The notes below the pieces were generated by a model, which was given only the letters and a program-made list of their open reading frames with translations, made no database searches and had not been told where the DNA came from. From contig CAYSOG010000006.1 in NCBI GenBank assembly GCA_964432675.1, forward strand, positions 1,824-65,823: a stretch of DNA of 64,000 bases. Direction: 5' to 3'. Position numbers and translations under genes: made by a program. Shown piece after piece: positions 6,795-64,000 of the stretch (the stretch's first letter is position 1; every line of letters begins with the position of its first letter). This DNA is from an uncultured Gammaproteobacteria bacterium (lineage in GTDB: Bacteria; Patescibacteriota; Microgenomatia; CAYSOG01).

Positions 6795-6923
6795 AACATA
6801 AACGGTTGGAGTGTAAAAAGTAGATAACTATTGCCAATACAGAGATTTTTCGCTATAATCCCCGTAAGAAGTATAATTTACTCGCTCTTTCAGAAATTGA
6901 TCTTTCAGATACCGAAGATGAAC

Positions 6924-6976
6924 CTGGCCACCAAAGCTTTGGCTAATATAGAGCGGTCACCGCCTTTGGTGGCCAG
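6924..6976 (+). terminator. Strong hairpin (13-bp perfect stem CTGGCCACCAAAG/CTTTGGTGGCCAG, 27-nt loop) downstream of the cupin gene; possible terminator or insulator
   Basis: Perfect inverted repeat read directly from the sequence. The loop contains a 12-bp palindrome, CCAAAGCTTTGG. A T-rich stretch follows. Confidence 0.45.
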
Positions 6977-7138
6977 AAAATCTCTGGTATCTTTTATTTT
7001 ACCAAAATTCCCCCAATTTCATAAGTCTTATACGTCTGATATGTCCAATAGGACTTAATGCCCCTTGCATTTCTGCTTGACCACCTTAGAAGTAATAAGC
7101 TTTAAAGCCACTTCCCTAACTGAACTTTTAAACAGGTC

Positions 7139-49188: not shown

Positions 49189-49223
49189 GAAAAAGGGCGG
49201 TTGTCTTGTAAGACAACCGCCCT
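49189..49223 (-). terminator. Rho-independent terminator (GGGCGGTTGTCTT-gta-AGACAACCGCCC) for the high-GC gene
   Basis: Perfect 12-13-bp stem with a T5 run on the minus strand. Confidence 0.65.
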
Positions 49224-49273
49224 GGGTTGGTGTCCGCCATGGTGGCGAACGGGTTTCGTTGAACGGGCCGAGG

Positions 49274-50050
49274 CTATCCGCGACCGCCGCGCTGGCGGTT
49301 TCTGTACTCGGCGTCGCGAGCCGATCTCTCGGCTTGCTGCTGGCGCCGCTCCGGTGGCGCACCCCGGTGGTTGCGCGGGTCTGTGGCCCGGCAGTCTCGG
49401 AGATGCGTGGCCAGTAGCGGGAGCAGCCGGCGAATCTCGGCCTGCTTGGGCCTGCTCTTGGTGGCGCCGTCGATTTCCTCCTGGCTAAGCCAGGGAAACT
49501 CCGACTGCTCGATCTTCTCGACATTTCTGAGAAGGGCGAGCGCGCCAATCAGAAGCAGCTGCTGCGGCTTTCGCATGAGCCCCGCCTCCTCGGCGAGGTT
49601 CTCGAAATGCGGGAGATACGTATCCCGCTGGGCCGACATGCAGGCCAAGAAGAGCTGCCAAGCGGCCTCGCGCGCCGCGGCGTAATCCGGTTCGAGGTCG
49701 TCCAGGATCATATCCCGGATCCGCTCCAGTTCCGCCTTGAGTTCGACCCGGCGTGGCTCGGCGATCCCATCCCAGCCGGTAGCAAATTGCGCGGTCTGGA
49801 ACTGCCGCCGGGCGGCCTCGTCGATCGGGATCCGCGGCTGATGCTGCTGGTCGGTGCCGGACTGCTCGTCGGTAGCGCAACCGAGAGACTTGCTGGCCTC
49901 GCGGATGACCCGGTCGATGGTCCCCTCCACGGGGGTCTCGGTGACGGTCTGGTCGGCGGTCTCGACGACGGTCTGGTCGGCGGTCTCGACGACGGGCTTC
50001 TGGTCGGCGGTGGCTTCGGTGCTATCAACGGTCTTGGCGGTCTTGGTCAT
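49274..50050 (-). CDS. High-GC hypothetical protein with tandem 8-aa repeats (start at 'MTKTAK')
   Basis: Protein-like frame among several GC-driven overlapping ORFs. N-terminal VETADQTV repeats and a helical C-terminal domain. Own terminator. Confidence 0.5.
   Translation of the reverse strand: MTKTAKTVDSTEATADQKPVVETADQTVVETADQTVTETPVEGTIDRVIREASKSLGCATDEQSGTDQQHQPRIPIDEAARRQFQTAQFATGWDGIAEPRRVELKAELERIRDMILDDLEPDYAAAREAAWQLFLACMSAQRDTYLPHFENLAEEAGLMRKPQQLLLIGALALLRNVEKIEQSEFPWLSQEEIDGATKSRPKQAEIRRLLPLLATHLRDCRATDPRNHRGAPPERRQQQAERSARDAEYRNRQRGGRG
49946..50014. repeat. Tandem direct repeat, 24-nt unit GGTCTGGTCGGCGGTCTCGACGAC x2 plus a partial third copy
   Basis: Read directly from the sequence. 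Encodes the VETADQTV repeats of the 49274 gene. Confidence 0.8.
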
Positions 50051-50197
50051 CTGGCCTTCTCCTGTACAATGAACCTGGCAACACGTGCTAAACGGTAGCA
50101 CACCGCGCCCAAAATGGGCGAAAGACTCTTGCCACAGTTTCATCCGGAGGCCCACGGGCCCGCCGAAAAAAACTAACAAGCCGATGACTGGGCGCCG

Positions 50198-50425
50198 TCA
50201 AAACGACGGCGCCTCCGACATGAACTCAAGGAACTTGCGGTCCGCTTCGGTAAGGACTGGGTCGACAAAAAGCCGACCATTGTCCTTTCCACAGCGGGGC
50301 AATGTCCCTCGGGTCGCCGGCGCCTCGGCCGCAGAAAGCCCACCTTCGTGGACCTTACCGCAGCTCAGGCAGGTTACGTCGAATTCCGTTGTGTTCGGAA
50401 TCACCGGTCTTGCCGCAACTACCAT
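50198..50425 (-). CDS. Small Cys-containing protein (75 aa), high GC
   Basis: 'CLSCGKVHEGG...PRCGKDNG' putative zinc-ribbon. Confidence 0.4.
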   Translation of the reverse strand: MVVAARPVIPNTTEFDVTCLSCGKVHEGGLSAAEAPATRGTLPRCGKDNGRLFVDPVLTEADRKFLEFMSEAPSF

Positions 50426-50894
50426 GTATTCCTCCTAAAAACTAGCCTCTCCGCTGAGGCTTCCATTACAAGGACTTACCATTCGTAAATCCCGATAATA
50501 GAAACCTCACCGTTTTAGCGTTGCTTAAAGGAAGTATTGTTCAACGATAATAATAGTAATGTGCAAATGCTTTTGGGTTTTTACGCCCTCAAGCGTTTGT
50601 TTGCAATTTGCGGCAAAAATAATTCGCAAATCCAAACAATTGTTGTGAAGTATATCACACTACAGGCCTTTTGTCAAGTATCTATAGGTCATACTATATA
50701 AATGTATAACCCTGCATAGATGCTATACACGCCATGTGTACCAGGATCAATAAAAGACATATGCCCTACTTCGCCGGACTACTTATACCATATGTATATA
50801 TAACTATAAGTTATGTATAGGCATTGCCTAGACACAGATTTCTGCATATTGTCATCCTGGCTTAATTGCATTATTTATGTTAGATAAAGCCAAT

Positions 50895-50972: not shown

Positions 50973-53939
50973 CTACTTAGCGGAAGGCTGTACCGCTTTT
51001 TGGTACACTTCCCGCAACAGGCCAATCTTCTTTACTTTGTGGCCGCTTTTAAGGCCCTCTTGGTTAACAAATCCCCAATACGTCTTCCCCCTTTCAGGCG
51101 TTGCCACTTCCGAAGCGGTGGCATCGAATTCGAAAAGCATGCCGTATGAAATTTCATCAATCGGCACAACCTTGTCGCCTTCGAACTGGTACTGCCCCGC
51201 TCCCGGCCAATGTTCGGCGTGGAACTGCGCAAGCCATGCGTCGTATTCGGCCTGCTTTTCCGCTTCCTCTTGGGCCAAGAGCTCAGCAAATTCGCGATCG
51301 AACTGCTCCTGTTTCCGTTGCAACAGCGCTTGCTCCAACCGAACCTGTTCGGCTTCGGCAGCAGCTTGCCGCCTTCGCGATAGCTCTTGCGCTTCAGCCT
51401 GCATCCGAGCCAGTTGAGCTTCTCGCTGCGCTTGCAGCGCCACTTCGCGGTTTGCTTCATAGGTTGGCCGGTTAGTGTCGATGAACTCGCTGGCAGCCGA
51501 AAGTCGCATCTCAGCGTCGGCCGGCCACTGCTCATCGAGCACCTTCAGTCGAAGGGCTTCAAGATCTTGGTAAAACGTGTAAGCCCTTTGGTCATCTTCA
51601 GCAAGTCCCCACATCGCCAAATCATTGCGAATTAACCACAGCACACCAGTAATACTATCAATCAAAGCCAGCTGGCTTCGCTGCGCTTCGGTTTGGTAAC
51701 GCCAGCGTTCCGATTCCGGAACTTCATCGCGCGTACACAAAACTTCCTCATATGCCACTTCTTGGCCAAGCACTGTAGTCGTGCGAGATTTGGTCCATTC
51801 TACCCGCATAAAACCGGGGGGTTTTGGATTGCCCTCGCGAACACTGACCATATGCGGGGCAACTTCAAGCAGCCACTCGACCTCGACTTTTTGGCAGCCA
51901 CGGGCAAAATTGCGTTTGCCTTTTGGCGTTGTGACACCTTGAATACCAGCACAGACAATAATCTGCGGTGGCGTATGAAACAACACGCTATCACGCGAAA
52001 TATACAACGCGGTGTCTTCCTCACGCGACAATGACCAAATGCTACGCGGCTTGGCGCCGGCCCAGGTGTAGCTGAACCTGCCATTTGAAACGGCCAAGTT
52101 CTGCATTAAACCAGCTGCCACTGCCTTGCCGATCACCGCAACTTGGCTCTTTTCGGTGTCAGTTAGTTCCCAACGGTCGACTGCCTTTTGGTAGCCTACC
52201 GATGTGACCTCGATCCCCATCAGCATAATAATATCCATAAGTTGCCGACGGATTTTGAGGATTTCATCAAGGCTTCGATGGTTCAAAAAGTGGTCACGTG
52301 CCCAATCATGGTCATAACCCGCGTCTGCGTATTCGTTCATGACGTTTAATACGGTTAGGAAATCGCTGTCATGAACAGACAAGCGTTGCCGCCACATGTC
52401 TGCATCAGCTTCATGGTCACGCGGCCTGGTAAAAAGCCGGTTGACCGAAAGGCTTGCGGCAATGGTGCAGATTTCTGCAATACAGCCATGCTTTTCGGCT
52501 TCCAAGATCATACGGCCGATGGTTGGTTCAACTGGTAGTTTTGCCAATTGCTGGCCGACATCGGTCAACGTATTATCAGCGTCAACCGCCCCAAGTGCCC
52601 GAAGTGTTTCAAGTGCGTTATGGAGCGCTTGCTTTGGCGGCGAGTCGATGAACTCGAACTCCTCGACATCAGTAATGCCAAGGCTCAGCATCTTCAACAC
52701 CACACTCGACAGTTCGCTGCGCACAATCTCGGGTACGGTAAACTCATCTGCATGGTCATACTCGGCCTCTGTAATAAGCCGGTAACAGTTGCCTTCATCG
52801 GTCCGCCCTGCCCGGCCGGCACGTTGGCCCATACCAGACTTCGAATGCAATATGGTCTGCAAGCTGCTAATGCCGCTGTGCGGATCAAACTGCATTTGGC
52901 GGATAAGGCATGAGTCGACCACATCAACCGCAGTTTGCGGTGTGATAGATGTTTCAAGCACGTTGGTGCCGATAATCACCCGACGGCGGTTTGAAGGAAT
53001 AAAGACGCGCTGCTGTTCGTCCGGGCTCATGTCGCCATGAACTGGAATAAGCTCGGCGTCGATATTAAGCCGTTCGAGAAATTCAATTGTCTTATTAATC
53101 CAGGCAAGGCCCGGCATAAAGACCATGATATCCCGTTTGGCTCTTTGGCTGGCAATAATTTGACTTACTTTGTATGCCGCCAGTGCTTCAACCGGAACCG
53201 GTTTGTCCGGATCGATTAGCCCCAGGAACTGGTCTCGAGCCTTATGATGTTCGCCCGGCTGAAGGTAATGGACCGTGACGGGAAACTGTTTCCCAACAAC
53301 CTGGATGATTGGCGCATTGTCGAAAAACGCCGAGAACTTTTCGGCATTAATGGTGGCCGACATGATAATAAGTTTCAAGTCAGGCCGCAACCGTAATGCT
53401 CGCTTCGCCAGGCCAATGGCAAAATCAGTATCGACGTTGCGTTCGTGCGCTTCGTCGAACCCGATAATGCCGTATTGATAGAACCCTTGGTCATGAATGG
53501 CTTCCTGAAGCAGGATACCATCGGTCATAAACTTAATTTTCGTGCCAACGCTTGTTTCATCGTCGAAGCGAATTTGGTAGCCGACTTCGTTGCCAATCCT
53601 ACTACCTAGCTGCCTGGCGACAAATTGGGCAACGGTAATTGCCGCAATGCGCCTGGGCTGGGTGATGCCAATCCTGCCAGTTTGAAGCATGTCTGCGTTG
53701 TACAGGAATTGTGGAACCTGGGTTGTCTTACCGCTGCCAGTTTCGGCAACCAAGATGGTTACCTGGTTCTGCCGAATGGCCTCGACAATTTCGTCTTTGT
53801 GCTGGCCAACGGGCAATTGAAGGTTCACGTTTTCGTTCCTCACGAGCAGGGGCCCTGGCGTTGCCAGGAATTGCCCACCCTGCTCCGACCACTTTTTCAG
53901 GTCTTGTCCGAAGTCTTTCCGTAAAGGGCAACGGACCAT
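50973..53939 (-). CDS. DEAH-box ATP-dependent helicase, HrpA/HrpB-like, with C-terminal OB/coiled-coil extension
   Basis: 'VAETGSGKTTQVPQF' (motif I), 'GFDEAHER' (DEAH) and helicase-associated HA2/OB-like region. Long Gln/Ala/Glu-rich coiled coil near the C-terminus. Confidence 0.85.
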   Translation of the reverse strand: MVRCPLRKDFGQDLKKWSEQGGQFLATPGPLLVRNENVNLQLPVGQHKDEIVEAIRQNQVTILVAETGSGKTTQVPQFLYNADMLQTGRIGITQPRRIAAITVAQFVARQLGSRIGNEVGYQIRFDDETSVGTKIKFMTDGILLQEAIHDQGFYQYGIIGFDEAHERNVDTDFAIGLAKRALRLRPDLKLIIMSATINAEKFSAFFDNAPIIQVVGKQFPVTVHYLQPGEHHKARDQFLGLIDPDKPVPVEALAAYKVSQIIASQRAKRDIMVFMPGLAWINKTIEFLERLNIDAELIPVHGDMSPDEQQRVFIPSNRRRVIIGTNVLETSITPQTAVDVVDSCLIRQMQFDPHSGISSLQTILHSKSGMGQRAGRAGRTDEGNCYRLITEAEYDHADEFTVPEIVRSELSSVVLKMLSLGITDVEEFEFIDSPPKQALHNALETLRALGAVDADNTLTDVGQQLAKLPVEPTIGRMILEAEKHGCIAEICTIAASLSVNRLFTRPRDHEADADMWRQRLSVHDSDFLTVLNVMNEYADAGYDHDWARDHFLNHRSLDEILKIRRQLMDIIMLMGIEVTSVGYQKAVDRWELTDTEKSQVAVIGKAVAAGLMQNLAVSNGRFSYTWAGAKPRSIWSLSREEDTALYISRDSVLFHTPPQIIVCAGIQGVTTPKGKRNFARGCQKVEVEWLLEVAPHMVSVREGNPKPPGFMRVEWTKSRTTTVLGQEVAYEEVLCTRDEVPESERWRYQTEAQRSQLALIDSITGVLWLIRNDLAMWGLAEDDQRAYTFYQDLEALRLKVLDEQWPADAEMRLSAASEFIDTNRPTYEANREVALQAQREAQLARMQAEAQELSRRRQAAAEAEQVRLEQALLQRKQEQFDREFAELLAQEEAEKQAEYDAWLAQFHAEHWPGAGQYQFEGDKVVPIDEISYGMLFEFDATASEVATPERGKTYWGFVNQEGLKSGHKVKKIGLLREVYQKAVQPSAK

Positions 53940-54781: not shown

Positions 54782-55561
54782 TTACGCCGGCACCGGGTCT
54801 GCGAGCCGAACAAGGCGAAAATTAAACCCTTTGCCGTAGGGCGTCGCATGCAAAACTATTCGGGAACGAGCTGGTATGGAACTATGCGGGTCGATCGACA
54901 CCCAAAATGCGGCGGTAAACAATCTAGAATGTTCCTTGAAATAGAGTAGTCGATTATGAATGTAAGACGCTACCTCCGGATCACCTTCGATATTATCTCT
55001 CTCAATAACAACAAAGGCTTGGCCGTTACCACCTGGATAGTAGTAATAGTTATTATCAACAGAAACTGTCACTTCACGAACGCACTTGCGTTCGATCAAT
55101 TCCACCGCCCGACCGTGCCCGATGGACATATATTGCAGTTCACCGTGTAGCATTACCGGTTCTATAAAGTCTTCAGGGCACCTGCCCTCACTAACGCGCA
55201 TAATGCATCCACTTTCCACAATGAAGTCGCAGTATTGCGCGATATAGGAAATCGGGAGATGGTCGTTTGCTATTTGGCATGTTAGGCCCATTTTCCTTGC
55301 TCGAACCTCACCTACTAATTCCATGCAGCCTGAATTTTCAGAGAGGACGACAAAGAGCTCATCGTCATAAAGCTCATGGGATATGTACTGAAGCTGCTCT
55401 CCGGATAAATCACCAGCTCCGAGAAATTCACCCTTCTCATTGAACCATCGTCCCCGCGAAATCCAGGGGTCAGAGCGTTCAACTTGTCCGCCTCGTAAGC
55501 CGAACAAGCCTGCTGCTCCTATATTCAGACCGCTATACATACCTTTGACAAGACGGGACAT
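54782..55561 (-). CDS. Hypothetical protein (about 260 aa from 'MSRLVKG'; ORF extends to 55720)
   Basis: AGGAGG RBS 6 nt upstream of the ATG at 55559-55561. Contains 'NYYYYPGGNG'. Confidence 0.45.
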   Translation of the reverse strand: MSRLVKGMYSGLNIGAAGLFGLRGGQVERSDPWISRGRWFNEKGEFLGAGDLSGEQLQYISHELYDDELFVVLSENSGCMELVGEVRARKMGLTCQIANDHLPISYIAQYCDFIVESGCIMRVSEGRCPEDFIEPVMLHGELQYMSIGHGRAVELIERKCVREVTVSVDNNYYYYPGGNGQAFVVIERDNIEGDPEVASYIHNRLLYFKEHSRLFTAAFWVSIDPHSSIPARSRIVLHATPYGKGFNFRLVRLADPVPA

Positions 55562-55756
55562 GATCTGCCTCCTCTTTTCGCTTTGCTGCTTTCCATCAAT
55601 TTTGTAGATTTTTAATGTACCATTTGGACACGCTTCGTGCCCAAACTGAAGGCTATTCCCTTCCGCAAACGTTTTTATACGCTTAAGGCATAAAAATGCT
55701 TGAGGAAAGGCCCCGTCCATCAGCCAGTTGGTGAATGAACGGGGATGAAAATTACT

Positions 55757-55942
55757 CTACAGAAGATTAAGAAGATCAAAGAGCCCAAGGGAGTTCCAAT
55801 ACTTTAATTTCCTATCCCAGTAGGCAGCCACGGCTAAGTGGAAATGTCTATCGTGCTCCAGCTGTTCACGCCGCGCTTCCAATGCTTCCAATAAGCGCTC
55901 AGCACTCCAGAATAAATAGATGAACTTCCAAAGCTGCTTCAT
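55757..55942 (-). CDS. Small hypothetical protein (61 aa)
   Basis: Overlaps the upstream gene stop. Helical. Confidence 0.3.
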   Translation of the reverse strand: MKQLWKFIYLFWSAERLLEALEARREQLEHDRHFHLAVAAYWDRKLKYWNSLGLFDLLNLL

Positions 55943-56274
55943 CGAATATCGCCGCTTGGCGCAAGTGAGTTGATGTAGGTTGCAATCGTAAGGAGCGCAG
56001 TATTAATGGGTACGGAATGGTTGCTTCTTACTATGCATGCTTCGGACAACGTGTTCAATATTGTTTTTTGTTGAACAGCATTCAATTTGGTATCGAGATT
56101 ATTGCAAAGCCCAAGGAGATTTGACGTAATTAAACTTCCAAGGTCTTCTAATGTTCCAAGTTGTGCAACCGCTCTAATATTCGGGAACAACTCCCCAGCC
56201 CTGGAAATTATATTCCCTAATTCTTGAGCAAATTCTCGAACCGTCATAGGTTCATTAGCGAGTTTCTGGACCAT
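55939..56274 (-). CDS. Hypothetical protein (111 aa), possible HTH
   Basis: Strong RBS AAAAAGGAGG. 'MTVREFAQELG' helix-turn-helix-like segment. Confidence 0.4.
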   Translation of the reverse strand: MVQKLANEPMTVREFAQELGNIISRAGELFPNIRAVAQLGTLEDLGSLITSNLLGLCNNLDTKLNAVQQKTILNTLSEACIVRSNHSVPINTALLTIATYINSLAPSGDIR

Positions 56275-56418
56275 TTTTCCTCCTTTTTGTTCCGCTTCGT
56301 TTTTCTGTAGGTATTTGAATGTGCAATTTGAAGCATACCGCTTCCTGAAACCCTCTAGGCTGCTGGCCTAAAAAGTTTGAGGAATGGGCGGGACGGCTTT
56401 TTAAGCCGTCCCGCAAAT

Positions 56419-56670
56419 TTACAGGTTAGATAATACTTGTTGCGCCCTTACGTCGGGGCAGCATGTTAAAAGGTACAGCACATATTTCTGGCCTCTGTGC
56501 CATGTACGCTTACTTTTTGGCCAAAGGCCTTGTTCGCGAGCTTTGTCGTAGTACGCAGCCACTACTTCGACCATGGCGATGATCTGCTCCCTCTTTTCAG
56601 GATGGAGCAAGATCCAGCTTTTGACGAAGTCAACGACATCGTTCAATGTTTTAACTTGCGGTTGTTCCAT
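56419..56670 (-). CDS. Hypothetical protein (83 aa)
   Basis: ORF in a co-directional array. Confidence 0.4.
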   Translation of the reverse strand: MEQPQVKTLNDVVDFVKSWILLHPEKREQIIAMVEVVAAYYDKAREQGLWPKSKRTWHRGQKYVLYLLTCCPDVRAQQVLSNL

Positions 56671-56687
56671 TGGCTTATTTCCTTGGC

Positions 56688-57155
56688 TTAGGATGAAAAG
56701 TCCTCTGGTTCTGAAATCCGCAGGCTATACAACGGCCGGGGATTGCCATCGCTCAGCTTAAAACGGCGAAAGAGCGTGTAAAGTGCCGGCAAATCGTAAT
56801 CGCCTTGCTGGTAGCGCGCATAGCGCGTTGCAATTGTATTACCGTCTGCCTTAACAACCGTCACCACGAGGGCATCGGTGAACCGGTCGACATGGATACG
56901 ATACTCACCACCTAGACGTTCTTCGCCCGGTAGGTTATCATTGACAATAATCGATAAGAGCCCCTCGCAGTCGACATAACGCAAGGTTTTTGCGTCGAAG
57001 ACTTCGCAACGACTGCCGAGATAAACCCCGTATCGCCGTTCTTCTTCCTTAATAACCTCGTAGGCCGTGTCAAATATAAGTTTGCCAAACAAGATTTCGG
57101 CAAACTTGCCTTTGGCCACCATCTGTTCAGTTTCGAGTGCTACCGGTGTTACCAC
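56688..57155 (-). CDS. Hypothetical protein (155 aa)
   Basis: ORF in a co-directional array. Confidence 0.45.
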   Translation of the reverse strand: MVTPVALETEQMVAKGKFAEILFGKLIFDTAYEVIKEEERRYGVYLGSRCEVFDAKTLRYVDCEGLLSIIVNDNLPGEERLGGEYRIHVDRFTDALVVTVVKADGNTIATRYARYQQGDYDLPALYTLFRRFKLSDGNPRPLYSLRISEPEDFSS

Positions 57156-57158
57156 CTT

Positions 57159-57512
57159 TTACCTCCGTGATGCATGGTTGTTTAAGCGAGACAATATTGG
57201 TGCAATCCACCATGGCAACGGTTCATGTTGCAACCTGTCAACCCAGCTGGCAATCGCCCAAAGGGTTGCGATCACAATGACAAACATGCTGACTGCAACT
57301 GCAAGGTTTGTTCCCGCCGGACCCGGCGTTATAGATGTTAGGCGCCAGTGCAAAAGGTGCGTTACACCTTCATATGCCACTATAATGCCAATATTGATAC
57401 AACCTGCTAATAGTATGACAAGCTGGAACCTCTTGAACCCAAAGACTAGCCGGATAATTATCATACAAAAGATGACGCTGATCGTTATGATTACACCCAA
57501 AAGATACTGCAT
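57159..57512 (-). CDS. Hypothetical polytopic membrane protein (117 aa)
   Basis: Three or four hydrophobic helices. Confidence 0.45.
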   Translation of the reverse strand: MQYLLGVIITISVIFCMIIIRLVFGFKRFQLVILLAGCINIGIIVAYEGVTHLLHWRLTSITPGPAGTNLAVAVSMFVIVIATLWAIASWVDRLQHEPLPWWIAPILSRLNNHASRR

Positions 57513-57706
57513 GACTGCCTCCGTTTGCGCTTCCTGAGCTTTTAACCTGTAATGGTAAGGTGCGATATGATGAAGTCAAAATGGAAAACGATTGCTCGTT
57601 CACTTTCATTTTAACTTCTTCCTGCAATTCTCAAATTTATTTTTGGGAATTATAGGAATGAGGCAGCGCCGAAACGGCGCTGCCCAAATGTACTCAAAAG
57701 AAAAGG

Positions 57707-58039
57707 TTAAGCAACAGCAGCTTGGATTATACCAATCCGCTGCCGGTGCGCCTCGATCCAAACCTTGCCAATCGCTTCAGCCAAGTCTATGACCGGACTG
57801 TAGTCAACATGCTGCTGCATGCGGCAATCGGTCAAGATTGCCGCTATGGTGTTGACAACGATATCTCCCGAGTAATCCTGGAGCGTGCCGTTGACCAACG
57901 CTTTCTGGTAGACTGCAAGGTTCTTGGCCGCCGAACTGATCCGGTTGGCCAATTTAACTTGACCAACTTGAGCCAATTCCTCCGCCCGGTTGAAAAGCCA
58001 GGCAAGGCCATTTTCGACAATCGCTTCTTCTACCTTCAC
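57707..58039 (-). CDS. Hypothetical protein (110 aa)
   Basis: ORF in a co-directional array. Confidence 0.4.
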   Translation of the reverse strand: MKVEEAIVENGLAWLFNRAEELAQVGQVKLANRISSAAKNLAVYQKALVNGTLQDYSGDIVVNTIAAILTDCRMQQHVDYSPVIDLAEAIGKVWIEAHRQRIGIIQAAVA

Positions 58040-58054
58040 ACTACTTCTCCTCTT

Positions 58055-58270
58055 CTAGATAAACTCGAGGTAGTACCGTGTTTTTTGGTCGCGGCGCTGC
58101 CGTTCTTCTTGGCATTCGCTGCAGTCATCCTGATGGACTGGCATGGCGTCGAGCTTACCACTCGCTGCTCGAGCTTTGCAGCGAGCCTCAAGTTTGCTGC
58201 CAGCCGTTGCCACCCAAACGTGACCATTTAAGCAAGCCACATTGTAGTGGACTTCGGTATTAGTGAGCAT
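58055..58270 (-). CDS. Small Cys/His-rich protein (about 71 aa from 'MLTNTEVHY')
   Basis: 'VACLNGH...CKAR...DDCSECQEE' putative zinc-binding. Confidence 0.35.
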   Translation of the reverse strand: MLTNTEVHYNVACLNGHVWVATAGSKLEARCKARAASGKLDAMPVHQDDCSECQEERQRRDQKTRYYLEFI

Positions 58271-58271
58271 C

Positions 58272-58646
58272 TTACCTACTCCTTGTAACTTGTGCATCTT
58301 GCATTGCTTCTCGGGCCAGCTGGTCGAGTTGTCGATACCACCCCGATGGACGTTCAGTTGCCCAGTTAATTGGATTAACGCCATCGTGCAAACGAATGTC
58401 TGCTGTCAGCACTTTGCGCTTTTGGCTTTCATATTCTTCGTAATCCAGCCCACGCAAGCTAATCGTGCTATACAGCGCTTCGCCGTATTCGAGCATGGTA
58501 ATGCCACCAGCTTCATCGTAAAAAACCTCGGAACTGGTATTATCGAGATAATACCAAGCATCCAAGAGTCTCGTATCGTCCATTGCCTGAAGACGAATTT
58601 CAAGCCGTTGGAATGCCAATCGACGATTTTCTGCAGTTATAGTCAC
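58272..58646 (-). CDS. Hypothetical protein (124 aa)
   Basis: ORF in a co-directional array. Confidence 0.45.
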   Translation of the reverse strand: MTITAENRRLAFQRLEIRLQAMDDTRLLDAWYYLDNTSSEVFYDEAGGITMLEYGEALYSTISLRGLDYEEYESQKRKVLTADIRLHDGVNPINWATERPSGWYRQLDQLAREAMQDAQVTRSR

Positions 58647-58665
58647 TTGCTACTCCTTCTTAGCA

Positions 58666-59061
58666 CTACCAGTCTTTAAAGGCAGCGGGAACTTCCGGCC
58701 CCCGGGGCTTGCTCGGGTCGAAGAAAACGACTCGCGTTGGCAGGTAGCGAACAACCTCAGCGTTTGGTAAGTCTTTTACCTGCGCGTACGCTTCGATCCA
58801 CCATCCAGCCTCTGTCTGCTCGCGATAAACGAATTCAACTTTTTGCACCCATTCATGAGCCTCTTGTGGACCCATACTCCGCAAACCTCGAACAACCATC
58901 ATGCGGATTTCAGACCGGCACCACCTGCCATTCGTCAGGGCATAGTTCGCCTCGACAGTTAACTTCGGCAAGTCCCGGTCGTTATAAGCAGCAAACCCAA
59001 AGCCATCAGTTTTCCAGTCATCCGCTTCTTTCTTCCCAAGCCACCTGAGGAAACCAAACAT
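58666..59061 (-). CDS. Hypothetical protein (131 aa), first gene of the minus array
   Basis: AAAAGGAGA RBS. Trp-rich. Confidence 0.45.
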   Translation of the reverse strand: MFGFLRWLGKKEADDWKTDGFGFAAYNDRDLPKLTVEANYALTNGRWCRSEIRMMVVRGLRSMGPQEAHEWVQKVEFVYREQTEAGWWIEAYAQVKDLPNAEVVRYLPTRVVFFDPSKPRGPEVPAAFKDW

Positions 59062-60316
59062 GGCATGTGTCTCCTTTTCTTTTTCGTTAATGTGCGATCC
59101 TTCATTGCCTATTTTCTCAAAGGCAATTATGAGAAGGAAAATTAGCAGACAATGGCTTATCTGCTTACTTTCTCTCTCAATAGCCGACTTCTATAACTTG
59201 CCGTCGGATATGCTAAGCCAAAGAAAAACCAGCTCTTTTTGCGGCTGTCCAAATACAAAATTAGCTAATTTGGGCAGGTGCATTTGAAACATGAGCATAT
59301 AAGCTGGCTGTTTCTTCAGTCGATAAAAATGAAGTGCTATATACCTAAGTATATGTTACAAACGTTTTCCGTTTTCGTGGAAGTATAACATACTATAAGC
59401 TTAAAGTCAAATCTGGGAGGCGCACTACATATTTACTAAACCTGGGTGTTACCACGCGATGTCTATGCAGTAGGTAGACATGATAAGGCAAAATGAGCCA
59501 CAGGGTCTGCTTTCTTATACTTAAACTCATAGTTTAAAGTTGCTATATATAATAGTGTAGCTATTGCAGCTAATTGCCTGTATATCCTTTGCTAGAATTG
59601 TTCATCTTGACAGACTTATAGTTATATGATACACTGCGCCCTACATCGTTTGGCGAAGCAATCACCAGACGATAAGCAATCGCACATTTTAAGAAACCAG
59701 AAAAGCTTAACATACCAGCTTTCAAGTCAAAACCTTTATTTCCTGCCATAGGGGTTCGTAGTACTTCCAACGTACTCCCCTTTTGACAGACAGCTGGTTT
59801 TTTGTTTTTCTTTGTCATTCTGGCAGACGAAGTCGAGACCAGGACCTTTTTGAAACCAAAGGAAACGTTTAGGTCTATGGTCGGAATGACAATATATTGT
59901 GGTGGTAAGCGAGCGCACAATCTGCTCTGTATCGTATCCGATACACCAAAAGGTTTTAAACCTTGTACTGGATACACCAATACGACATGTATTGTGGGCT
60001 CACTTTCCATCCCAAACTTTCTTAGCGGCGCTAAGTGCCGCAACAAAGTTACAAGATGGATCAAAAACCTTACAACGAACTTTCACAATCTACAGTTGAA
60101 AACCTTTAAAGATGCTTTTATTGGCGTCGAAAAGCGGCTTAAAACATTGTCATTCTGAACGGATACGAAGTGTAGTGAAGAATCTACCACGGTCGGATTA
60201 GCAAGCCAGGTAGAAGATCCCTCTCTAATCACTCGGGATGACAACCTGTTTGAGTTTCTTTTCGGCGTCAATAAGCAGCAACGGCGTTTAAAAAGCGTCA
60301 AGATGGAAGGAAAATC
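59062..60316. promoter_or_regulatory. 1.25-kb non-coding divergent control region with direct repeats, palindromes and stacked hairpins
   Basis: No protein-like ORF. TTGACA-17-TACACT at 59607-59635. Repeats TTGTCATTCTG...ACGAAGT at 59812 and 60147. The 16-mer TTCACAATCTACAGTT at 60082. Palindrome CTTAGCGGCGCTAAG at 60021-60035. Hairpins at 59929-59994. Confidence 0.5.
60082..60097 (+). repeat. 16-mer TTCACAATCTACAGTT, copy 1
   Basis: Exact repeat of the 16-mer at 61642-61657. Confidence 0.8.
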
Positions 60317-60652
60317 ATGGCAACGGCTACGATCGACCAACTGGCGAATGAAGTAATGATTGGGATCAGTGGCGTGCTTATGCACGACATCAGAACGACG
60401 GTTTCCGACGCTCGAGTATCGGGCGACCAACCGACGGAAGAAGGTGCATTTTCGACGCTCGACCACCTTGAGAAAATCCATCATGCGATCGTTGTTTTTT
60501 TGAGCTTTCCTGGCAGGCGCAGCCGCGAGCAAGCTGAGAATCTATCGGGGCTCCTTGAGGGTATGGAGGACTACTCCCCCCTCGAGCCAGTTAAGGATGC
60601 AGTCGTCGAGTTACGTAAGTCGTTGCTCGACCTGCTGGCAAACGCTTCATGA
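60317..60652 (+). CDS. Hypothetical protein (111 aa)
   Basis: First ORF of the plus-strand array. Confidence 0.4.
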   Translation: MATATIDQLANEVMIGISGVLMHDIRTTVSDARVSGDQPTEEGAFSTLDHLEKIHHAIVVFLSFPGRRSREQAENLSGLLEGMEDYSPLEPVKDAVVELRKSLLDLLANAS

Positions 60653-60846
60653 GCTCGACGTGAAGTATCCACCTCAGTAAAGAAAGGTTTTCGACGTAGA
60701 TTTTTTGAGTCCCCGTTCAGTTGCATGGACGGGGCTCTTCCTTAAGTCCTTAAACAATTTTGAGGATTGAAGGAAGAACTGATTAAAATAGTTCTTCAAG
60801 AACAGAAATCGCACTTTTAGAGCTGAAAACCAAAAAGGAGAGGTGG

Positions 60847-61182
60847 ATGACAGTCCAGCAGCAACTCACACACGCGCTCCATGACATGGTCATGGTGAGC
60901 CTTCGGGCGACGCCCGAGGAAGTCGAGTTTGGCCCGCCGTGCAGCTATCTCATCGAGAGCTGTATCAGGGCAGGGGTAGACACGGTTGCAAAAGATATAC
61001 TGTCAAACCGGCAAAGCGAGTTCCGCCTCAACGGCGCAGGACTCAAGCTCATTTCGAACTTGTACGGCACACCCGAAAACCCGCGGCTCACCTTGAGCGT
61101 TGGGGGCGACCAGGCGCATCACTATCCATCAACACTCCCCAAACTGCGACAAATCGTCCAAAACGCCGGCCTAGCCGGGTAA
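60847..61182 (+). CDS. Hypothetical protein (111 aa)
   Basis: RBS AAAAGGAGAGGTGG. A palindrome, GTTCTTCAAGAAC, lies 40 nt upstream. Confidence 0.45.
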   Translation: MTVQQQLTHALHDMVMVSLRATPEEVEFGPPCSYLIESCIRAGVDTVAKDILSNRQSEFRLNGAGLKLISNLYGTPENPRLTLSVGGDQAHHYPSTLPKLRQIVQNAGLAG

Positions 61183-61195
61183 AGAGGAGATAGAG

Positions 61196-61510
61196 TTGAG
61201 AAAGTTGACAAAGGCACAGCAGTTGCGGAAGGTCGCTTCGGACCTTGGCGTTGAAGTCAAGGTCGAGGCGGTCGTCCGCCCGTGGGGTGAGACAGATTAC
61301 GTCCTGGAATTCCAGGGCCACTCACCCCAGCCCGAGGTAACCTTTTCATTCATTGAGGCACTAGGCCTCATTTTTGATGAGGTGCCGGACCCCGCCGAAG
61401 GAACGTGTCCAACCTGCGAAAGCGATTGGAGTTGTCCGGTGCACCACACCGGCGACTACTCGCTCACAGGCGGTGACTTTTCAGCTGCCATAATCGCAGC
61501 AGTGTTGTAA
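61196..61510 (+). CDS. Hypothetical protein (104 aa) with a C-terminal Cys/His cluster
   Basis: 'CPTCESDWSCPVHH' putative zinc site. RBS GAGGAGA. Confidence 0.45.
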   Translation: MRKLTKAQQLRKVASDLGVEVKVEAVVRPWGETDYVLEFQGHSPQPEVTFSFIEALGLIFDEVPDPAEGTCPTCESDWSCPVHHTGDYSLTGGDFSAAIIAAVL

Positions 61511-61641
61511 GGAGGTTTTCAGCGTAGATATTGGGCGGCAGCCAACAAGCTGTCGCCCTCTTCCAAAAATCTTTTTTTGGCACATTGCCAAAAGAGGCAT
61601 TTTGGAAGAGCGAATAAGCTTTTCAAGAAACACTTTGTTCA

Positions 61642-61657
61642 TTCACAATCTACAGTT
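61642..61657 (+). repeat. 16-mer TTCACAATCTACAGTT, copy 2
   Basis: Exact copy of the 16-mer. A partial copy, AATCTACAGGTT, is near 63850. Confidence 0.8.
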
Positions 61658-61694
61658 ACTCTTCCGAAACCGGTAATTTGCCCGGGAAGGAAGC

Positions 61695-62195
61695 ATGAAG
61701 CAACAGGAGAAAATCGTGATGTCGTCGCGAACCAACCGGTCAAAGATCGTAACCAGCCCCGGTGCCCAGTTTCTGGCCAACCGAGGGGTTACATTGTGGC
61801 CATTCTTTAATGCCCGCACCCGGCATATCATTGACGTTGGGCAGTCCGCAGGTTCACCGCTGGTCTACACATCGGCAAGCTTCGACCCTAAAGAAGGGTC
61901 GGAATTTATGCTGACTTGCCATTGGCCAGATCGACACCTGTTGACACAGTTAGTCCGTCAGCAGCCCTACGGGCACTGGTACTTGGATATTTACGACACC
62001 AGCCGGCATGCAAGCCAACGAGCTGATTTAGTCGAGGAATGCCAGCTCATCGTACGCGATGAGTACGGACGAAGCGATGATGTGCCCTGGGATTACCAGG
62101 CGTGGAACGGCCCCGACTGGGACAATGCCGAAATCTATTATCTCGGCTGCCCCATCGTCCAACCCCCAGGCTTAATTGCACGGTTGCCAATCTAG
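61695..62195 (+). CDS. Hypothetical protein (166 aa)
   Basis: ORF preceded by the 16-mer repeat. Confidence 0.45.
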   Translation: MKQQEKIVMSSRTNRSKIVTSPGAQFLANRGVTLWPFFNARTRHIIDVGQSAGSPLVYTSASFDPKEGSEFMLTCHWPDRHLLTQLVRQQPYGHWYLDIYDTSRHASQRADLVEECQLIVRDEYGRSDDVPWDYQAWNGPDWDNAEIYYLGCPIVQPPGLIARLPI

Positions 62196-62224
62196 AGGCA
62201 AGAAACTAGCAAAGGAGACGCACA

Positions 62225-62572
62225 ATGGAAGGTCTAAGAGCAATAGTAATCTGTTTCGCTTCTCTCGTGGCATTCGTAACATGCTGCAAAGAGCTAGAGA
62301 AACGGGTTGACATGAGACTCCCCTTCGGCATTCTCATCGGGCTATATCACGGCTTCGCTGCGGCTTTGGTCTTCGCAACCTTTTTAGATCCGCAGAGCTG
62401 GATCGGTGCTGATAAGATGAATGTTGAAACGACGGTATTCACCGTCTTCGTGTCGTTGATCGTGAGCGCATTACCAATAGCGATCCTGTCGCTGCTTGGA
62501 TGCGGCTTATGCATGATCCTTTGGACGATACATCAAGCCAGGACCAGGCTGTCACAACTAGTCTCGTTCTGA
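62225..62572 (+). CDS. Hypothetical polytopic membrane protein (115 aa)
   Basis: RBS AAAGGAGA. Three or four TM helices. Confidence 0.45.
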   Translation: MEGLRAIVICFASLVAFVTCCKELEKRVDMRLPFGILIGLYHGFAAALVFATFLDPQSWIGADKMNVETTVFTVFVSLIVSALPIAILSLLGCGLCMILWTIHQARTRLSQLVSF

Positions 62573-62598
62573 GCAGAACATTCCAGGAGAGGTGAAAA

Positions 62599-62703
62599 AT
62601 GCCCCAAGATAATCTATATTCTGTACTTCTCAGCATCACAATGTGGCTCATAGCACTCGACCTGCTTGGAATAGCTGTCGTTTACAGCTTTGGAATACAT
62701 TAA
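62599..62703 (+). CDS. 34-aa hydrophobic peptide (not in the ORF track)
   Basis: GGAGAGGTG RBS 6 nt upstream of ATG. The peptide MPQDNLYSVLLSITMWLIALDLLGIAVVYSFGIH forms one TM helix. Confidence 0.3.
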   Translation: MPQDNLYSVLLSITMWLIALDLLGIAVVYSFGIH

Positions 62704-62747
62704 CTTCGGTAGCTGGGCCGTATAGCCCACAAAAAAGGAAGCGAAGA

Positions 62748-62879
62748 ATGGATCTTGTTGAGATTCTACGGCATCTCGGGACACTTTCGGACGCAGACTT
62801 GTTGAACGCGCTATTGTTTTCGGTGGCTGGGGTTGGCTATTCAGTTTTGATAATTGCCGGCCTCACCAGGCATCGGTAA
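62748..62879 (+). CDS. 43-aa small membrane peptide (ORF 62643-62879, likely start 'MDLVEIL')
   Basis: AGGAAG RBS. C-terminal TM helix. Confidence 0.35.
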   Translation: MDLVEILRHLGTLSDADLLNALLFSVAGVGYSVLIIAGLTRHR

Positions 62880-62892
62880 CTGTAGAAATCAT

Positions 62893-62936
62893 GTCCGCCC
62901 TTTACGTCTACCAGACGAAGGGCGGACCTTTCCTTA
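62893..62936 (+). terminator. Terminator GTCCGCCCTT...AAGGGCGGAC followed by CTTTCCTT
   Basis: 10-bp stem with an internal second stem. Followed by the further hairpins 62965-62985 and 63007-63028 (GGGAGGGAC-tttt-GTCCCTCCC). Confidence 0.55.
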
Positions 62937-63505
62937 ATGATTGAAGGCAACTTCAGCCATTTAGGAAGGGTGGTAACCACCTTTCATTAACAAATTTATA
63001 TAGGGCGGGAGGGACTTTTGTCCCTCCCCTACCCTGTTCTTTGCACATTAATACAGGTTTTAGTAATAGCCACCCGTTTCACCGCTTTATTGTGGAGGAG
63101 TTTTGCCACGCGAAAAATGGCAGGATTAATTTCTTCAGAATTAAGCGGTGAACAGGTAGCCGCTCGGCACACGAAGGAGTTGTGTTGGGAAGTAGCCTTC
63201 GCACGTCACAGGTCAATTGTCGGCAGGGACAGGCAAGGATCGCTTGCCACATCCACCAGTGCACTGGCTGCGGCAGGAGCATCAGTAACCCGCATGGCAC
63301 CTGCTCAGAGTCGTGCAAACGGCTCTGCGATAGGTGTAAGCACCCCGGTTTTCCTGCGGCAACTGTTTCTGCTACACAGCCAACTGATATAAGACAATCC
63401 AACCCGAGGTCGACTGGAAGGCCTGCTTCAATATTTACGCGCCTCTGATTGCTATCCGCCTGGGTATAATCTCCTACCAAGTCATCTTATTAGAAAGGAG
63501 GAAAA

Positions 63506-63697
63506 GTGGAAGAAGAGGTTTTTGAGGTTAAGTGCCTGAATTGCGGCCGTGTCGCCGGTGAAGTAACGGGCTCAGCGGCCAAGCGCATGGACAGGCCTCC
63601 CAAGTGTAGCCACTGCAACGGCAGGACACACTTGCAACCGCTTGCCAATGACGAACTGGCACTTGCCAGACATCGGCTCAAAGCCAGTATTGCTTAA
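63506..63697 (+). CDS. Zinc-ribbon mini-protein (63 aa, GTG start)
   Basis: 'CLNCGR...CSHCNG' CxxC-x-CxxC. AGGAGG RBS 8 nt upstream. TATAAT at 63461-63466. Confidence 0.5.
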   Translation: MEEEVFEVKCLNCGRVAGEVTGSAAKRMDRPPKCSHCNGRTHLQPLANDELALARHRLKASIA

Positions 63698-64000
63698 ACC
63701 AAATTTGTTCTCCGCCCTTTCCATTGTGGATTGGGCGGAGACACCTACTTTAAGAGGTAAAGTGTCGATATAACTTTTCTTGTGTCCACATTTTCCTTCT
63801 TAAAAGCCATGGATGGCAAGTAGAGTTGGAACAAAAATTTCGTACATTAATAATCTACAGGTTAAATAAAAACTGAAAGCTCCCCTAGTGGAGACAATTT
63901 ATCCTTCGAGCGATTAGGGAGAAGTTCGTCAATAGAATAGGTAGTCCCAGTAAAGTTCTCGCTTTGTGAGTACACGTCGCTCGAACAATAATATATCCAT

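Follow-up and report, generated by a model that had tools for sequence, protein, structure and literature searches.

A non-coding interval between divergent gene arrays

The last part (about 48-64 kb) of the window, the whole 64-kb stretch of DNA analysed, is most likely a genomic island of foreign origin, its genes lacking homologues, in the chromosome of an uncultured Patescibacteria (CPR) bacterium. Genomic islands are frequent in Patescibacteria (PMC12455944). The GC content of the island is about 50%, compared with about 43% for the host chromosome. Two gene arrays diverge from a long non-coding interval within it:

59062-60316, no strand assigned: non-coding interval, delimited from the ORF list, composition, codon log-odds and Pfam
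59061 down to a DEAH helicase, with a terminator at 50926-50901, minus strand: minus array, faced by the predicted promoter P(-)
60317 to a terminator at 63003-63034, plus strand: plus array, faced by the predicted promoter P(+)

The interval is bounded by the ATG of the minus-strand gene 58666-59061 and the ATG of the plus-strand gene 60317-60652 (gene 1). Both of these first genes have Shine-Dalgarno sites; the ribosome-binding site of 58666-59061 is AAAAGGAGA. The GC content is 40% in the interval versus about 50% in the flanking island genes. Codon log-odds are negative for every ORF within the interval and mostly positive for the flanking genes, and a Pfam search of the interval ORFs gave no match better than E 0.09. 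These results bear out the original prediction, made from the sequence alone, that the interval is non-coding and that its ORFs do not resemble proteins; a conserved protein gene, looked for by codon usage and Pfam, was not found there. The helicase gene that closes the minus operon (50973-53939) encodes a eukaryote-like, Prp22/DHX8-like DEAH RNA helicase.

Neither the region nor the flanking genes tested have a homologue in any collection searched. A distant-mode blastn search with 58600-60700 found no match among plasmids and phages, viral contigs contained no relatives of either flanking gene, and the flanking genes had no match in Pfam, PHROGs or PADLOC. Among 5.8 billion proteins the 131-aa gene matched only itself, and the AlphaFold model of its product has a pLDDT of 45. 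In a full HMMER search of 1.84 billion representatives, gene 1 also found only itself, besides weak partial matches (E 4e-5 to 8.5e-4), mostly to very large proteins. Metagenome scans with the motif 23-mer and with the 312-aa ORFan were negative, as was the search for paralogy among island ORFs. A scan of the genome collection with the helicase found none; the helicase homologues found elsewhere lie in unrelated chromosomal contexts, and therefore there is no synteny to exploit. Logan contigs identical to the region are metagenomic DNA; the source community is represented by the sample of run SRR9179560. One contig (L001), which starts inside the long plus-strand hairpin described below and carries an adapter residue, was considered as an RNA end and rejected, the sample being a large metagenome.

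Outward promoters and promoter-proximal hairpins

Two predicted promoters of the sigma-70 type, about 200 bp apart and pointing outward toward the arrays, are directly visible in the interval:

59607-59635, plus strand: P(+), TTGACA, 17-nt spacer and TG-extended TACACT; predicted start about 59643
59410-59382, minus strand: P(-), TTGACT, 17-nt spacer and TG-extended TATACT; predicted start about 59375

The first had already been named as TTGACA-17-TACACT in the original prediction, and we find that it carries the TG extension in addition; its mirror image on the minus strand had been overlooked. Each scores 10/12, its 17-nt spacer falling within the 16-18 nt of sigma-70-type promoters and the TG being an optional extension of these; the promoter rules of Patescibacteria are assumed to be like those of E. 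coli. When the interval was shuffled 3000 times with dinucleotides preserved, two TG-extended promoters scoring at least 10/12 arose in only 2 shuffles (p about 7e-4). Across the 64 kb there are only six TG-extended sites of such score, four of them in the island. The predicted leaders are about 314 nt (minus) and about 675 nt (plus) long.

Each promoter is followed by a long terminator-like hairpin, likewise overlooked earlier:

59219-59307, minus strand: long hairpin 59307-59229 (dG -22.5) with the base CCAGCT(T)/(A)AGCTGG, then TTTTTCTTTGG
59715-59814, plus strand: long hairpin 59715-59797 (dG -23.9) with the base CCAGCT/AGCTGG and an inner GGGG...CCCC hairpin, then TTTTTTGTTTTTCTTTG

Each of these hairpins, of about 80 nt, lies about 75 nt past the predicted start. 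The hairpins (-23.9 and -22.5 kcal/mol) have GC-containing bases of 6-7 bp, with T6GT5 or T5CTTT after them. The region of the plus short RNA (59640-59815) folds with a z-score of -4.9, and the minus hairpin with about -1.7 alone and -2.7 together with its leader. The 11-mer AGCTGGTTTTT is common to both elements (p about 0.01). We considered whether the two sides are homologous and rejected this, as the terminator-like units have only this 11-mer in common and the match between the promoter regions is non-significant; they are not clear paralogues. The end of a host gene at 6907-6992 is built in the same style, with an 86-nt hairpin followed by UUUUAUUUU. The consensus terminator scan did not flag the two long hairpins because their loops and stems fall outside its rules; a permissive scan finds them and flags many intragenic sites too. 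Hairpins of 80 nt fold slowly and may terminate poorly. A candidate antiterminator, the weak 6-bp hairpin AAAGCU...AGCUUU at 59701-59721, holds the 5' arm of the plus hairpin in a partial transcript.

Transcripts ending at these hairpins would be short RNAs of about 155 nt (minus) or about 165 nt (plus); alternatively, each hairpin would serve as an attenuator. The same promoter-to-terminator geometry would be seen in two independent genes for trans-acting sRNAs of about 155-170 nt, with the arrays using promoters unseen by the sigma-70 consensus scan. The short RNAs fold well and compactly (z -4.9 and -2.7), and neither contains a plausible small ORF with a ribosome-binding site, all of which would suit sRNA genes; a type I toxin-antitoxin reading, which calls for a small toxic peptide, was dropped for want of such an ORF. 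We consider the sRNA reading unlikely. The consensus scan detected no further promoter of 9/12 or better between the terminator-like hairpins and the first genes, and in particular none from the plus hairpin to gene 1. The 500 nt past the plus hairpin are strongly structured, and two of the hairpins there, A and C, are stabler on the plus strand, as expected of a transcribed leader. No Rfam family matches either: the scan of the interval that the original prediction had proposed was negative, the only match above the gathering threshold of Rfam 15 in the 64-kb window is a tRNA-Leu, and a permissive scan of the interval and the plus array gave at best chance matches to miRNA hairpins (E 0.3-10).

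Leader structure and short repeats

Both leaders contain further predicted structures:

59095-59210, minus strand: three minus-leader hairpins that separate the terminator-like element from the ribosome-binding site of 58666-59061 (z -3.6)
59645-59673, plus strand: 5' hairpin of the plus leader (z -5.7)
59813-59891, plus strand: hairpin A, with a 12-bp closing stem formed by TTGTCATTCTGG and its inverted copy (from repeat copies and folding)
59907-60005, plus strand: domain B, a nested long hairpin with two copies of the direct 10-mer GATACACCAA (from folding)
60006-60060, plus strand: hairpin B2, which holds a 15-nt palindrome at 60021-60035 (z -5.9)
60082-60107, plus strand: motif X'1, TTCACAATCTACAGTTGAAAACCTTT, which includes a repeated 16-mer and has its complement at 60683-60703, past the end of gene 1
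60113-60280, plus strand: hairpin C, 168 nt with about 62 bp, the largest in the plus leader (from folding both strands)

Folded segment by segment, the region proved strongly structured, with z-scores of -5.3 for the plus leader (59800-60330), -4.9 for the plus short RNA, -4.7 for the stretch around 59929-59994 and -3.6 for the minus leader. Most named elements lie between -3.3 and -5.9, hairpin A being weaker (-2.8). The three small hairpins described at 59929-59994 in the original prediction were recovered as three small palindromes within that structured stretch, inside domain B, and the 15-nt palindrome at 60021-60035 was found as CTTAGCGGCGCTAAG. Hairpin C stops 25 nt short of the gene 1 ribosome-binding site.

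The stability of several elements depends on the strand. The minus-leader fold (59095-59210) reaches -39.4 kcal/mol on the minus strand versus -30.7 on the plus strand, and hairpin C reaches -63.8 kcal/mol (z -5.5, 9 G-U pairs) on the plus strand versus -48.7 (z -2.2) on the minus strand. In the minus leader, hairpin A and hairpin C alike, the stabler fold is that of the predicted transcribed strand, an asymmetry that fits an RNA on this strand. The spacer downstream of gene 1, E2, also favours the plus strand, and hairpins A and C and E2 contain many G-U pairs.

Domains B and B2, by contrast, fold more stably on the minus strand than on the plus strand, which is at odds with a role as plus-strand RNA only. 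Such behaviour is expected of a DNA-level palindrome and could reflect an oriT or other single-strand-active hairpins of a conjugative or rolling-circle element: a nick-site region, a single-strand origin or the single-strand promoters of a leading region. In RP4 and F, oriT and leading regions lie between divergent operons with arrays of small unknown genes, and the site between divergent operons and the arrays of small genes here recall this layout. An oriT is recognised by a relaxase gene in cis and by a nick site beside an inverted repeat, and nick sites can be told only where their family is known. We regard an oriT as very unlikely, since the scanned island ORFs yielded no relaxase, T4SS, Rep or integrase domain, the hairpin stems contain no -35/-10 pair, and the plus strand is clearly favoured by hairpins A and C and by spacer E2, with their many G-U pairs.

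The direct repeat reported in the original prediction is present, but with a different layout: it consists of an 11-mer plus a 7-mer at unequal spacing, at 59812-59833 and 60147-60171. Its core, TTGTCATTC, has exact copies at 59812 (plus), 59884 (minus) and 60147 (plus), the only three in 64 kb, and a fourth, inverted copy with one mismatch at 60237-60245. The copies, some direct and some inverted and at distances of 72-335 bp, form the arms of hairpins A and C; in the stem of hairpin C, the third copy pairs with GGATGACAA. The exact 16-mer at 60082 and 61642 was also confirmed. It belongs to a family of short motifs in the intergenic spacers of the plus array:

60683-60701, plus strand: motif X1, AAAGGTTTTCGACGTAGAT, partner of X'1, which opens the structured spacer E2 (60680-60835) and lies outside the interval
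61511-61657, plus strand: spacer E3, with motif X2, AGGTTTTCAGCGTAGAT (61513-61529), two hairpins and the second 16-mer copy (61642-61657); z -6.2

The short repeats are either hairpin arms or members of a motif family that closes structured plus-array spacers; they are not iterons. The repeats had been called iteron-like; there is no tandem array among them, and no direct-repeat family of the interval has more than two copies.

The shared stem TTGTCATTCTG of hairpins A and C, whose interiors differ, raises the question whether they and the other palindromes are debris of MITE-, ERIC- or REP-like insertions without a regulatory role, lying beside the promoters. The whole island is about 9-fold richer in strongly folding windows than the host part, and short motif families recur across its intergenic spacers, as might be expected of such debris. 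Like ERIC/IRU, REP/BIME and Correia elements, those of the interval are imperfect palindromes of 80-170 nt in DNA predicted to be transcribed and non-coding, and A and C share stems; unlike them, the copies are confined to the interval or the island, their interiors are unrelated, and the interval has no terminal-repeat or target-duplication signature. Repeat debris seems quite unlikely to us: there are just two to four copies, all within the interval, and hairpin stability is biased toward the plus strand, which suggests that selection acts on the RNA. The inverted 16-mer ends at 59219 and 59814 were examined as the termini of a MITE and rejected, no target-site duplication being present.

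The X'/X motifs (ATCTACAGTTGAAAACCTTT and its complement) might instead be attC-like recombination sites that bound gene cassettes, 60082-60107 being the first site of an array of small genes without homologues. Each X' best matches the X after the same gene or gene group (60087-60107 with 60683-60703, 19-20 bp; 60822-60831 with 61513-61522, 10 bp; 61649-61659 with 62876-62886, 11 bp), and the identity of the 16-mer copies ends exactly after GTT. These sites are extremely unlikely to be attC-like, however. The copies read GTTGAAA, GCTGAAA and GTTACTC where a canonical R' would be GTTRRRY, and TTTCGAC and TTTCAGC in place of the R'' RYYYAAC. The elements are multi-hairpin structures of about 150 nt, versus the single 57-141-nt hairpin of attC, and the best single inverted-repeat score was matched in about 6 of 30 region shuffles. 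No tyrosine recombinase was detected in the scanned island ORFs (the last 4.7 kb of the contig lie outside the window).

The original prediction also read the interval as a replication origin or iteron region, which our results do not support. An integrated plasmid or phage origin would have its repeats and palindromes bound by an initiator from an unrecognised flanking gene and would unwind at the low-GC stretch. In favour of this, the GC content of the interval is 10 points below its flanks, several palindromes accompany the clustered TTGTCATTC motif, and the genes diverge from the interval, near which (59-60 kb) the cumulative GC skew stops falling. The skew change coincides with the switch in gene orientation and therefore does not discriminate. 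Iteron origins have at least three direct repeats of about 17-22 bp in tandem or helical phase, an adjacent Rep gene, and DnaA boxes and/or an AT-rich unwinding element. The interval resembles those of F (oriS), P1 (oriR), pPS10 and R6K in being lower-GC non-coding DNA with short repeats, palindromes and neighbouring genes of unknown function, but no tandem phased 17-22-bp repeats, DnaA boxes or Rep gene were found. Specifically, Tandem Repeats Finder (minimum score 30) detected no tandem or phased repeats, no direct family has three or more copies, and no DnaA box TTATCCACA occurs within one mismatch from 55062 to 64000. The interval is only moderately AT-rich (40% GC), and its repeats pair as hairpin arms, with A and C folding better on the transcribed strand. 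No Rep, primase or other initiator match was found among the scanned island proteins, nor a relaxase or integrase, although an initiator of a new kind may escape such scans, as the flanking genes have no homologues. An origin is thus highly improbable, and an origin or iteron annotation of the interval can be set aside as a false lead.

A putative bidirectional control region

On balance, and with some reserve, we suggest that the interval is a bidirectional control region of the foreign island, consisting of two outward promoters, each with a long hairpin-rich untranslated leader. The original prediction had offered a long structured leader or ncRNA as its other possibility, and this part, itself a prediction, gains support from the outward promoters, the terminator-like hairpins, the folding z-scores and the strand bias. 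P(-) would transcribe the minus array and P(+) the plus array, each through its leader. Within about 170 nt of the start, the leader would form the hairpin closed by CCAGCU/AGCUGG and followed by a run of U, which would act as a promoter-proximal intrinsic terminator, so that the default product of each promoter would be a short RNA of about 155-170 nt. Read-through would then be required for the arrays to be expressed, and the divergent arrays are probably controlled by attenuation or by antitermination, which may depend on a factor. Hairpins A, B, B2 and C probably control the stability or processing of the mRNA and how accessible the gene 1 ribosome-binding site is.

A comparable arrangement is found in the divergent early regions of temperate phages. 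In lambda, PL and PR are followed by tL1 and tR1 and read-through requires N; PR'-tR' yields the 194-nt 6S RNA and is read through with Q; HK022 uses put RNAs. As in these phages, the interval has two strong outward promoters (here predicted) a few hundred bp apart, a terminator-like hairpin within about 170 nt of each start that would give a short RNA by default, and downstream arrays of small genes. Unlike in the phages, there is no repressor gene between the promoters, no recognisable N-, Q- or NusG-like protein, no nut-, qut- or put-like sequence and no phage hallmark gene (PHROGs), and the terminators of lambda are much shorter than the island hairpins.

The downstream hairpins invite a second comparison, with the RNase III sites between the early genes of phage T7 and the long-range stems that flank 16S and 23S rRNA in rRNA operons. 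Long stems occur in both settings (about 62 bp in hairpin C, and about 20 bp in the X'1/X1 duplex flanking gene 1); they are placed in leaders and between the cistrons of one operon, and their ends share short sequences. The island spacers differ in being 150-nt multi-hairpin elements, known here from sequence alone, without sequence similarity to those sites and without an Rfam hit.

To our knowledge, almost nothing is known about the regulation of Patescibacteria (CPR) mobile elements. If our reading is correct, the locus is a concrete, testable example of such regulation, in which two consensus-type promoters, promoter-proximal terminators and unusually long, stable RNA hairpins control gene arrays without relatives in current databases.

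Folding elements are not confined to the interval: the enrichment in strongly folding windows extends across the whole island. A bipartite module, in which a GC-rich hairpin is followed by a YUUCCU...AGGAAR hairpin, has six copies that pass strict thresholds, all in the 17-kb island, where a seventh (57685-57619) lies just at the threshold; in other CPR DNA we found 1 in 608 kb. A more ambitious proposal, which we hold to be distinctly improbable, is that the island has its own expression system based on RNA structure, in which strong promoters and hairpin leaders would be combined with bipartite modules separating every gene or gene group, plus-array units would be bracketed by complementary X'/X motifs, and the DEAH helicase would remodel or process the RNAs. 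If true, a Patescibacteria mobile element would possess an operon-processing or gene-unit architecture not described before. The wider pattern, in which almost all gene junctions of the island carry hairpin modules next to a eukaryote-like DEAH RNA helicase, could become interesting should transcripts or related elements come to light.

A non-coding divergence point with two outward promoters

The interval at 59062-60316 is the point at which two gene arrays diverge, one on the minus strand (59061 down to a helicase gene) and one on the plus strand (60317 to ~63035). It fills exactly the space between two start codons, the ATG of 58666-59061 (-) and that of 60317-60652 (+; gene 1). Three tests bear out the original prediction that it is non-coding. 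Codon log-odds, from models trained on island or on host genes, are negative for all ORFs inside the interval, and mostly positive for the flanking genes in leave-one-out tests. No Pfam match to the interval ORFs is better than E 0.09. Shine-Dalgarno sequences are present at the flanking genes and absent at the internal ORFs.

A promoter scan of both strands of the interval found exactly two strong sites, each with a TG extension and a 17-nt spacer:

59607-59635 (+): P(+), TTGACA-17-TACACT, correctly placed in the original prediction
59410-59382 (-): P(-), TTGACT-17-TATACT, missed there

The two are ~200 bp apart and face outward, each toward its array. TG-extended sites scoring at least 10/12 number six in the whole window, four of these in the island (~48 kb to the window end). 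The two outward consensus promoters are significant: at least two such promoters per 1255 nt of the interval's composition appeared in 2 of 3000 dinucleotide shuffles. Together with strong folding, they support the earlier suggestion of a structured leader, and the interval is best interpreted as a bidirectional promoter region whose 5' leaders are long and structured.

An origin of replication with iteron-like repeats had also been proposed. The positions given for the 16-mer pair, the 15-nt palindrome and three small palindromes are correct; the sequence parts of the direct repeat are also there, but as an 11-mer plus a 7-mer whose spacing differs. Its 9-nt core, TTGTCATTC, has three copies, two direct and one inverted, and no others within 64 kb; a one-mismatch fourth copy, inverted, lies at 60237-60245. 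In the predicted fold, hairpins A and C of the plus leader are closed by stems made of these copies; this explains why the copies are clustered and of mixed orientation. The repeats are not iteron-like: Tandem Repeats Finder found no array in the interval, the direct-repeat families have two copies each without exception, and no DnaA box with at most one mismatch occurs in the interval. Lower GC, divergent genes and a GC skew that levels off at the switch in gene orientation lend the origin generic support, but it fails each specific test run and is not supported.

Terminator-like hairpins and predicted structured leaders

Each predicted start is followed, ~75 nt further downstream, by one long hairpin of ~80 nt, with a basal stem of CCAGCT/AGCTGG and a T-run directly after it. 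A host gene end has a hairpin of matching style:

59715-59797 (+): terminator-like hairpin, -23.9 kcal/mol, then TTTTTTGTTTTTCTTTG
59307-59229 (-): terminator-like hairpin, -22.5 kcal/mol, then TTTTTCTTTGG
6907-6992 (+): host long hairpin, 86 nt, then UUUUAUUUU, 110 nt after host gene 5547-6794

Folding z-scores are -4.9 for the plus unit (59640-59815) and -2.7 for the minus unit. The only sequence common to the two is the 11-mer AGCTGGTTTTT (p ~0.01), with which alone they are not demonstrable as paralogues. A consensus terminator scan called neither long hairpin because it expects compact ones. The host hairpin is probably the terminator of gene 5547-6794; its region has a z of -5.6 (6860-7060) and of -9.8 in the 120-nt scan, and 6907-7000 has no Rfam match. 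Given this host example, long-hairpin terminators seem to be used in this genome, and the two hairpins of the interval may act as terminators. In nascent RNA, the 5' arm of the putative plus terminator might be sequestered by another pairing, which is weak (6 bp) and plays no part in the interpretation. A rival explanation sees in the interval two free-standing sRNA genes.

Logan contig L001 (SRR9179560) starts with an Illumina adapter residue (TTCCGATCT, L001 positions 1-10) joined to window position ~59757, within the plus-strand long hairpin. This junction is probably a short-insert artefact of a low-coverage metagenome.

After the T-run, the plus leader (59800-60330) folds at -166 kcal/mol, compared with -129 ± 7 in shuffles (z -5.3). 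Its centroid structure contains:

59813-59891 (+): hairpin A
59907-60005 (+): domain B, nested, containing the three hairpins of the original prediction
60006-60060 (+): hairpin B2, containing the palindrome
60113-60280 (+): hairpin C, 168 nt, ~62 bp, ending 25 nt 5' of the gene 1 ribosome-binding site

The minus leader forms three hairpins between T-run and ribosome-binding site (z -3.6). This thermodynamic structure is strong, and favours the transcribed strand for the minus leader (-39.4 kcal/mol on the minus versus -30.7 on the plus strand), hairpin A (plus -26.6 versus minus -22.7) and hairpin C (plus -63.8, with 9 G-U pairs and z -5.5, versus minus -48.7, z -2.2). Domains B and B2 have the reverse preference, the minus strand being more stable. 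For several elements, the energies point to RNA-level structure on the predicted transcribed strand. Less probable readings of the region are an oriT or single-strand-active hairpins, and palindromic repeat debris.

In a promoter and leader region, transcription would start downstream of P(+) and P(-) and terminate at the two long hairpins. Since no other recognisable promoter lies between the plus hairpin and gene 1, array expression would need read-through, by attenuation or factor-dependent antitermination. Hairpins A-C might have roles in stability, processing or ribosome access. At lambda PR'-tR', a 194-nt RNA is made unless Q acts. Functionally the layout is comparable to that of temperate phages in which divergent early promoters are paired with promoter-proximal terminators, and the structured spacers are reminiscent of the RNase III sites that lie between early genes of T7 and of rRNA-flanking stems; with no sequence or protein homology to any of these systems, membership is not claimed. 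A PHROGs scan of the island found no phage hallmark genes.

The interval has no match in plasmid and phage collections (blastn) or in Rfam. The first minus-array gene (131 aa) has no homologue among 5.8 billion proteins, nor gene 1 among 1.84 billion representatives (full HMMER), and viral, genome and metagenome scans with the flanking proteins, the largest ORFan and a motif 23-mer found nothing. The original observation is largely real, and the interval is a new case, unique in the databases, of something already familiar: a control region of divergent promoters and leaders. It would gain more than modest interest if the attenuation model or the island-wide hairpin system were borne out by transcript data or by relatives.

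Complementary motifs and hairpin modules along the island

The 16-mer lies within a longer motif, X' (TTCACAATCTACAGTTGAAAACCTTT, 60082-60107). Gene 1 and gene 3 each have the complement X, AAAGGTTTTC(RR)CGTAGAT, just 3' of the stop codon (60683-60701 and 61511-61529). Partial X' copies lie at 60822-60831, 5' of gene 2, and at 61642-61657, 5' of gene 4, the latter being the second 16-mer, and TCTACAGTTAC is in inverted orientation at 62876. These sites, with 62876-62886 and 63847-63862, make up the family of ATCTACAGTTGAAAACCTTT and its complement, which brackets the plus-array gene units. X'/X motifs close the structured plus-array spacers E2 (60680-60835) and E3 (61508-61660), with z of -4 to -6.6.

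Each X' has its best match in the X 3' of its own gene unit (19-20, 10 and 11 bp), and identity between the 16-mer copies stops exactly past GTT. Both features would suit cassette recombination sites, and the motifs were therefore tested as integron attC. Canonical attC core sites are in no copy, the elements are multi-hairpin and ~150 nt, no recombinase is detectable among the island ORFs scanned, and ~6 of 30 shuffles reach the score of the best single inverted repeat, which by itself lacks significance. On these four counts X'/X are not classed as attC.

Windows of 120 nt with z <= -4 make up 10.3% of the island versus 1.1% of the host part. At many gene junctions in both arrays is a bipartite module, always oriented like the local genes: a GC-rich hairpin (-19 to -24 kcal/mol) and, directly after it, YYTTCCTYAA, which pairs 25-50 nt downstream with AGGAAR.

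48336-48268 (-): module
55744-55661 (-): module
56414-56342 (-): module
57685-57619 (-): module
60707-60775 (+): module
61533-61607 (+): module
62893-62967 (+): module

At strict thresholds the 17-kb island has 6 modules, the 47-kb host part has 0, and other CPR loci yield 1 over 561 kb. No module falls inside the interval itself. The first hairpins of modules 60707 and 55744 have CCCCGTTCA...ATGGACGGGG in common. Even so, the pattern marks stable RNA hairpins as part of the general design of the island element.

Within 55561-55757 (-), the first ATG of the 312-aa ORF 54782-55720 falls inside the GC-rich hairpin of a module. NCBI lists this protein with 259 aa; the true start is therefore probably ~53 codons downstream, with a spacer of ~195 nt here. 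Another case of a promoter leading into a long hairpin leader is at 50445-50677 (-). Here a TTGACA-17-TATACT promoter with TG (11/12; 50677-50649) is followed ~130 nt downstream by a near-perfect 75-nt hairpin (50519-50445, -40 kcal/mol), which directly precedes the ribosome-binding site and ATG of a 75-aa ORF, 50425-50198 (-).

The host and the island

The NCBI contig that contains the window is 68.7 kb long, and identical short contigs are present in one large metagenome run, SRR9179560. The first 47 kb (~43% GC) carry the housekeeping genes dnaB, hisS, tgt, htrA, ctp and tRNA-Leu. The host DnaB is at most 65% identical to that of any species representative. Because its best matches are MAGs labelled Patescibacteria, Levyibacteriota, Saccharibacteria, Doudnabacteria and similar, the host is, judged by sequence, an uncultured CPR/Patescibacteria bacterium. 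Patescibacteria genomes reportedly often contain genomic islands and prophages (PMC12455944).

From ~48 kb to the window end GC rises to ~50%, with a 61% patch at 49-50 kb. Nearly all island ORFs are without a Pfam, PHROGs or PADLOC match, with one main exception, the last minus-array gene:

50973-53939 (-): DEAH/HA2/OB-fold RNA helicase of Prp22/DHX8/HrpA type, 988 aa

Its nearest relatives, at 40-52% identity, come chiefly from Patescibacteria MAGs and from metagenome contigs that carry no label; next are the splicing helicases DHX8/DHX16 of fungi. The homologues lie in ordinary, unrelated chromosomal contexts with no comparable gene arrays.

The GC patch (~61-65%, 49200-50450) contains a minus-strand ORF, 49274-50179, and small ORFs, none with a family match. 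It is bounded by compact terminators (49222-49195 and 50227-50178) and looks like a separate acquisition.
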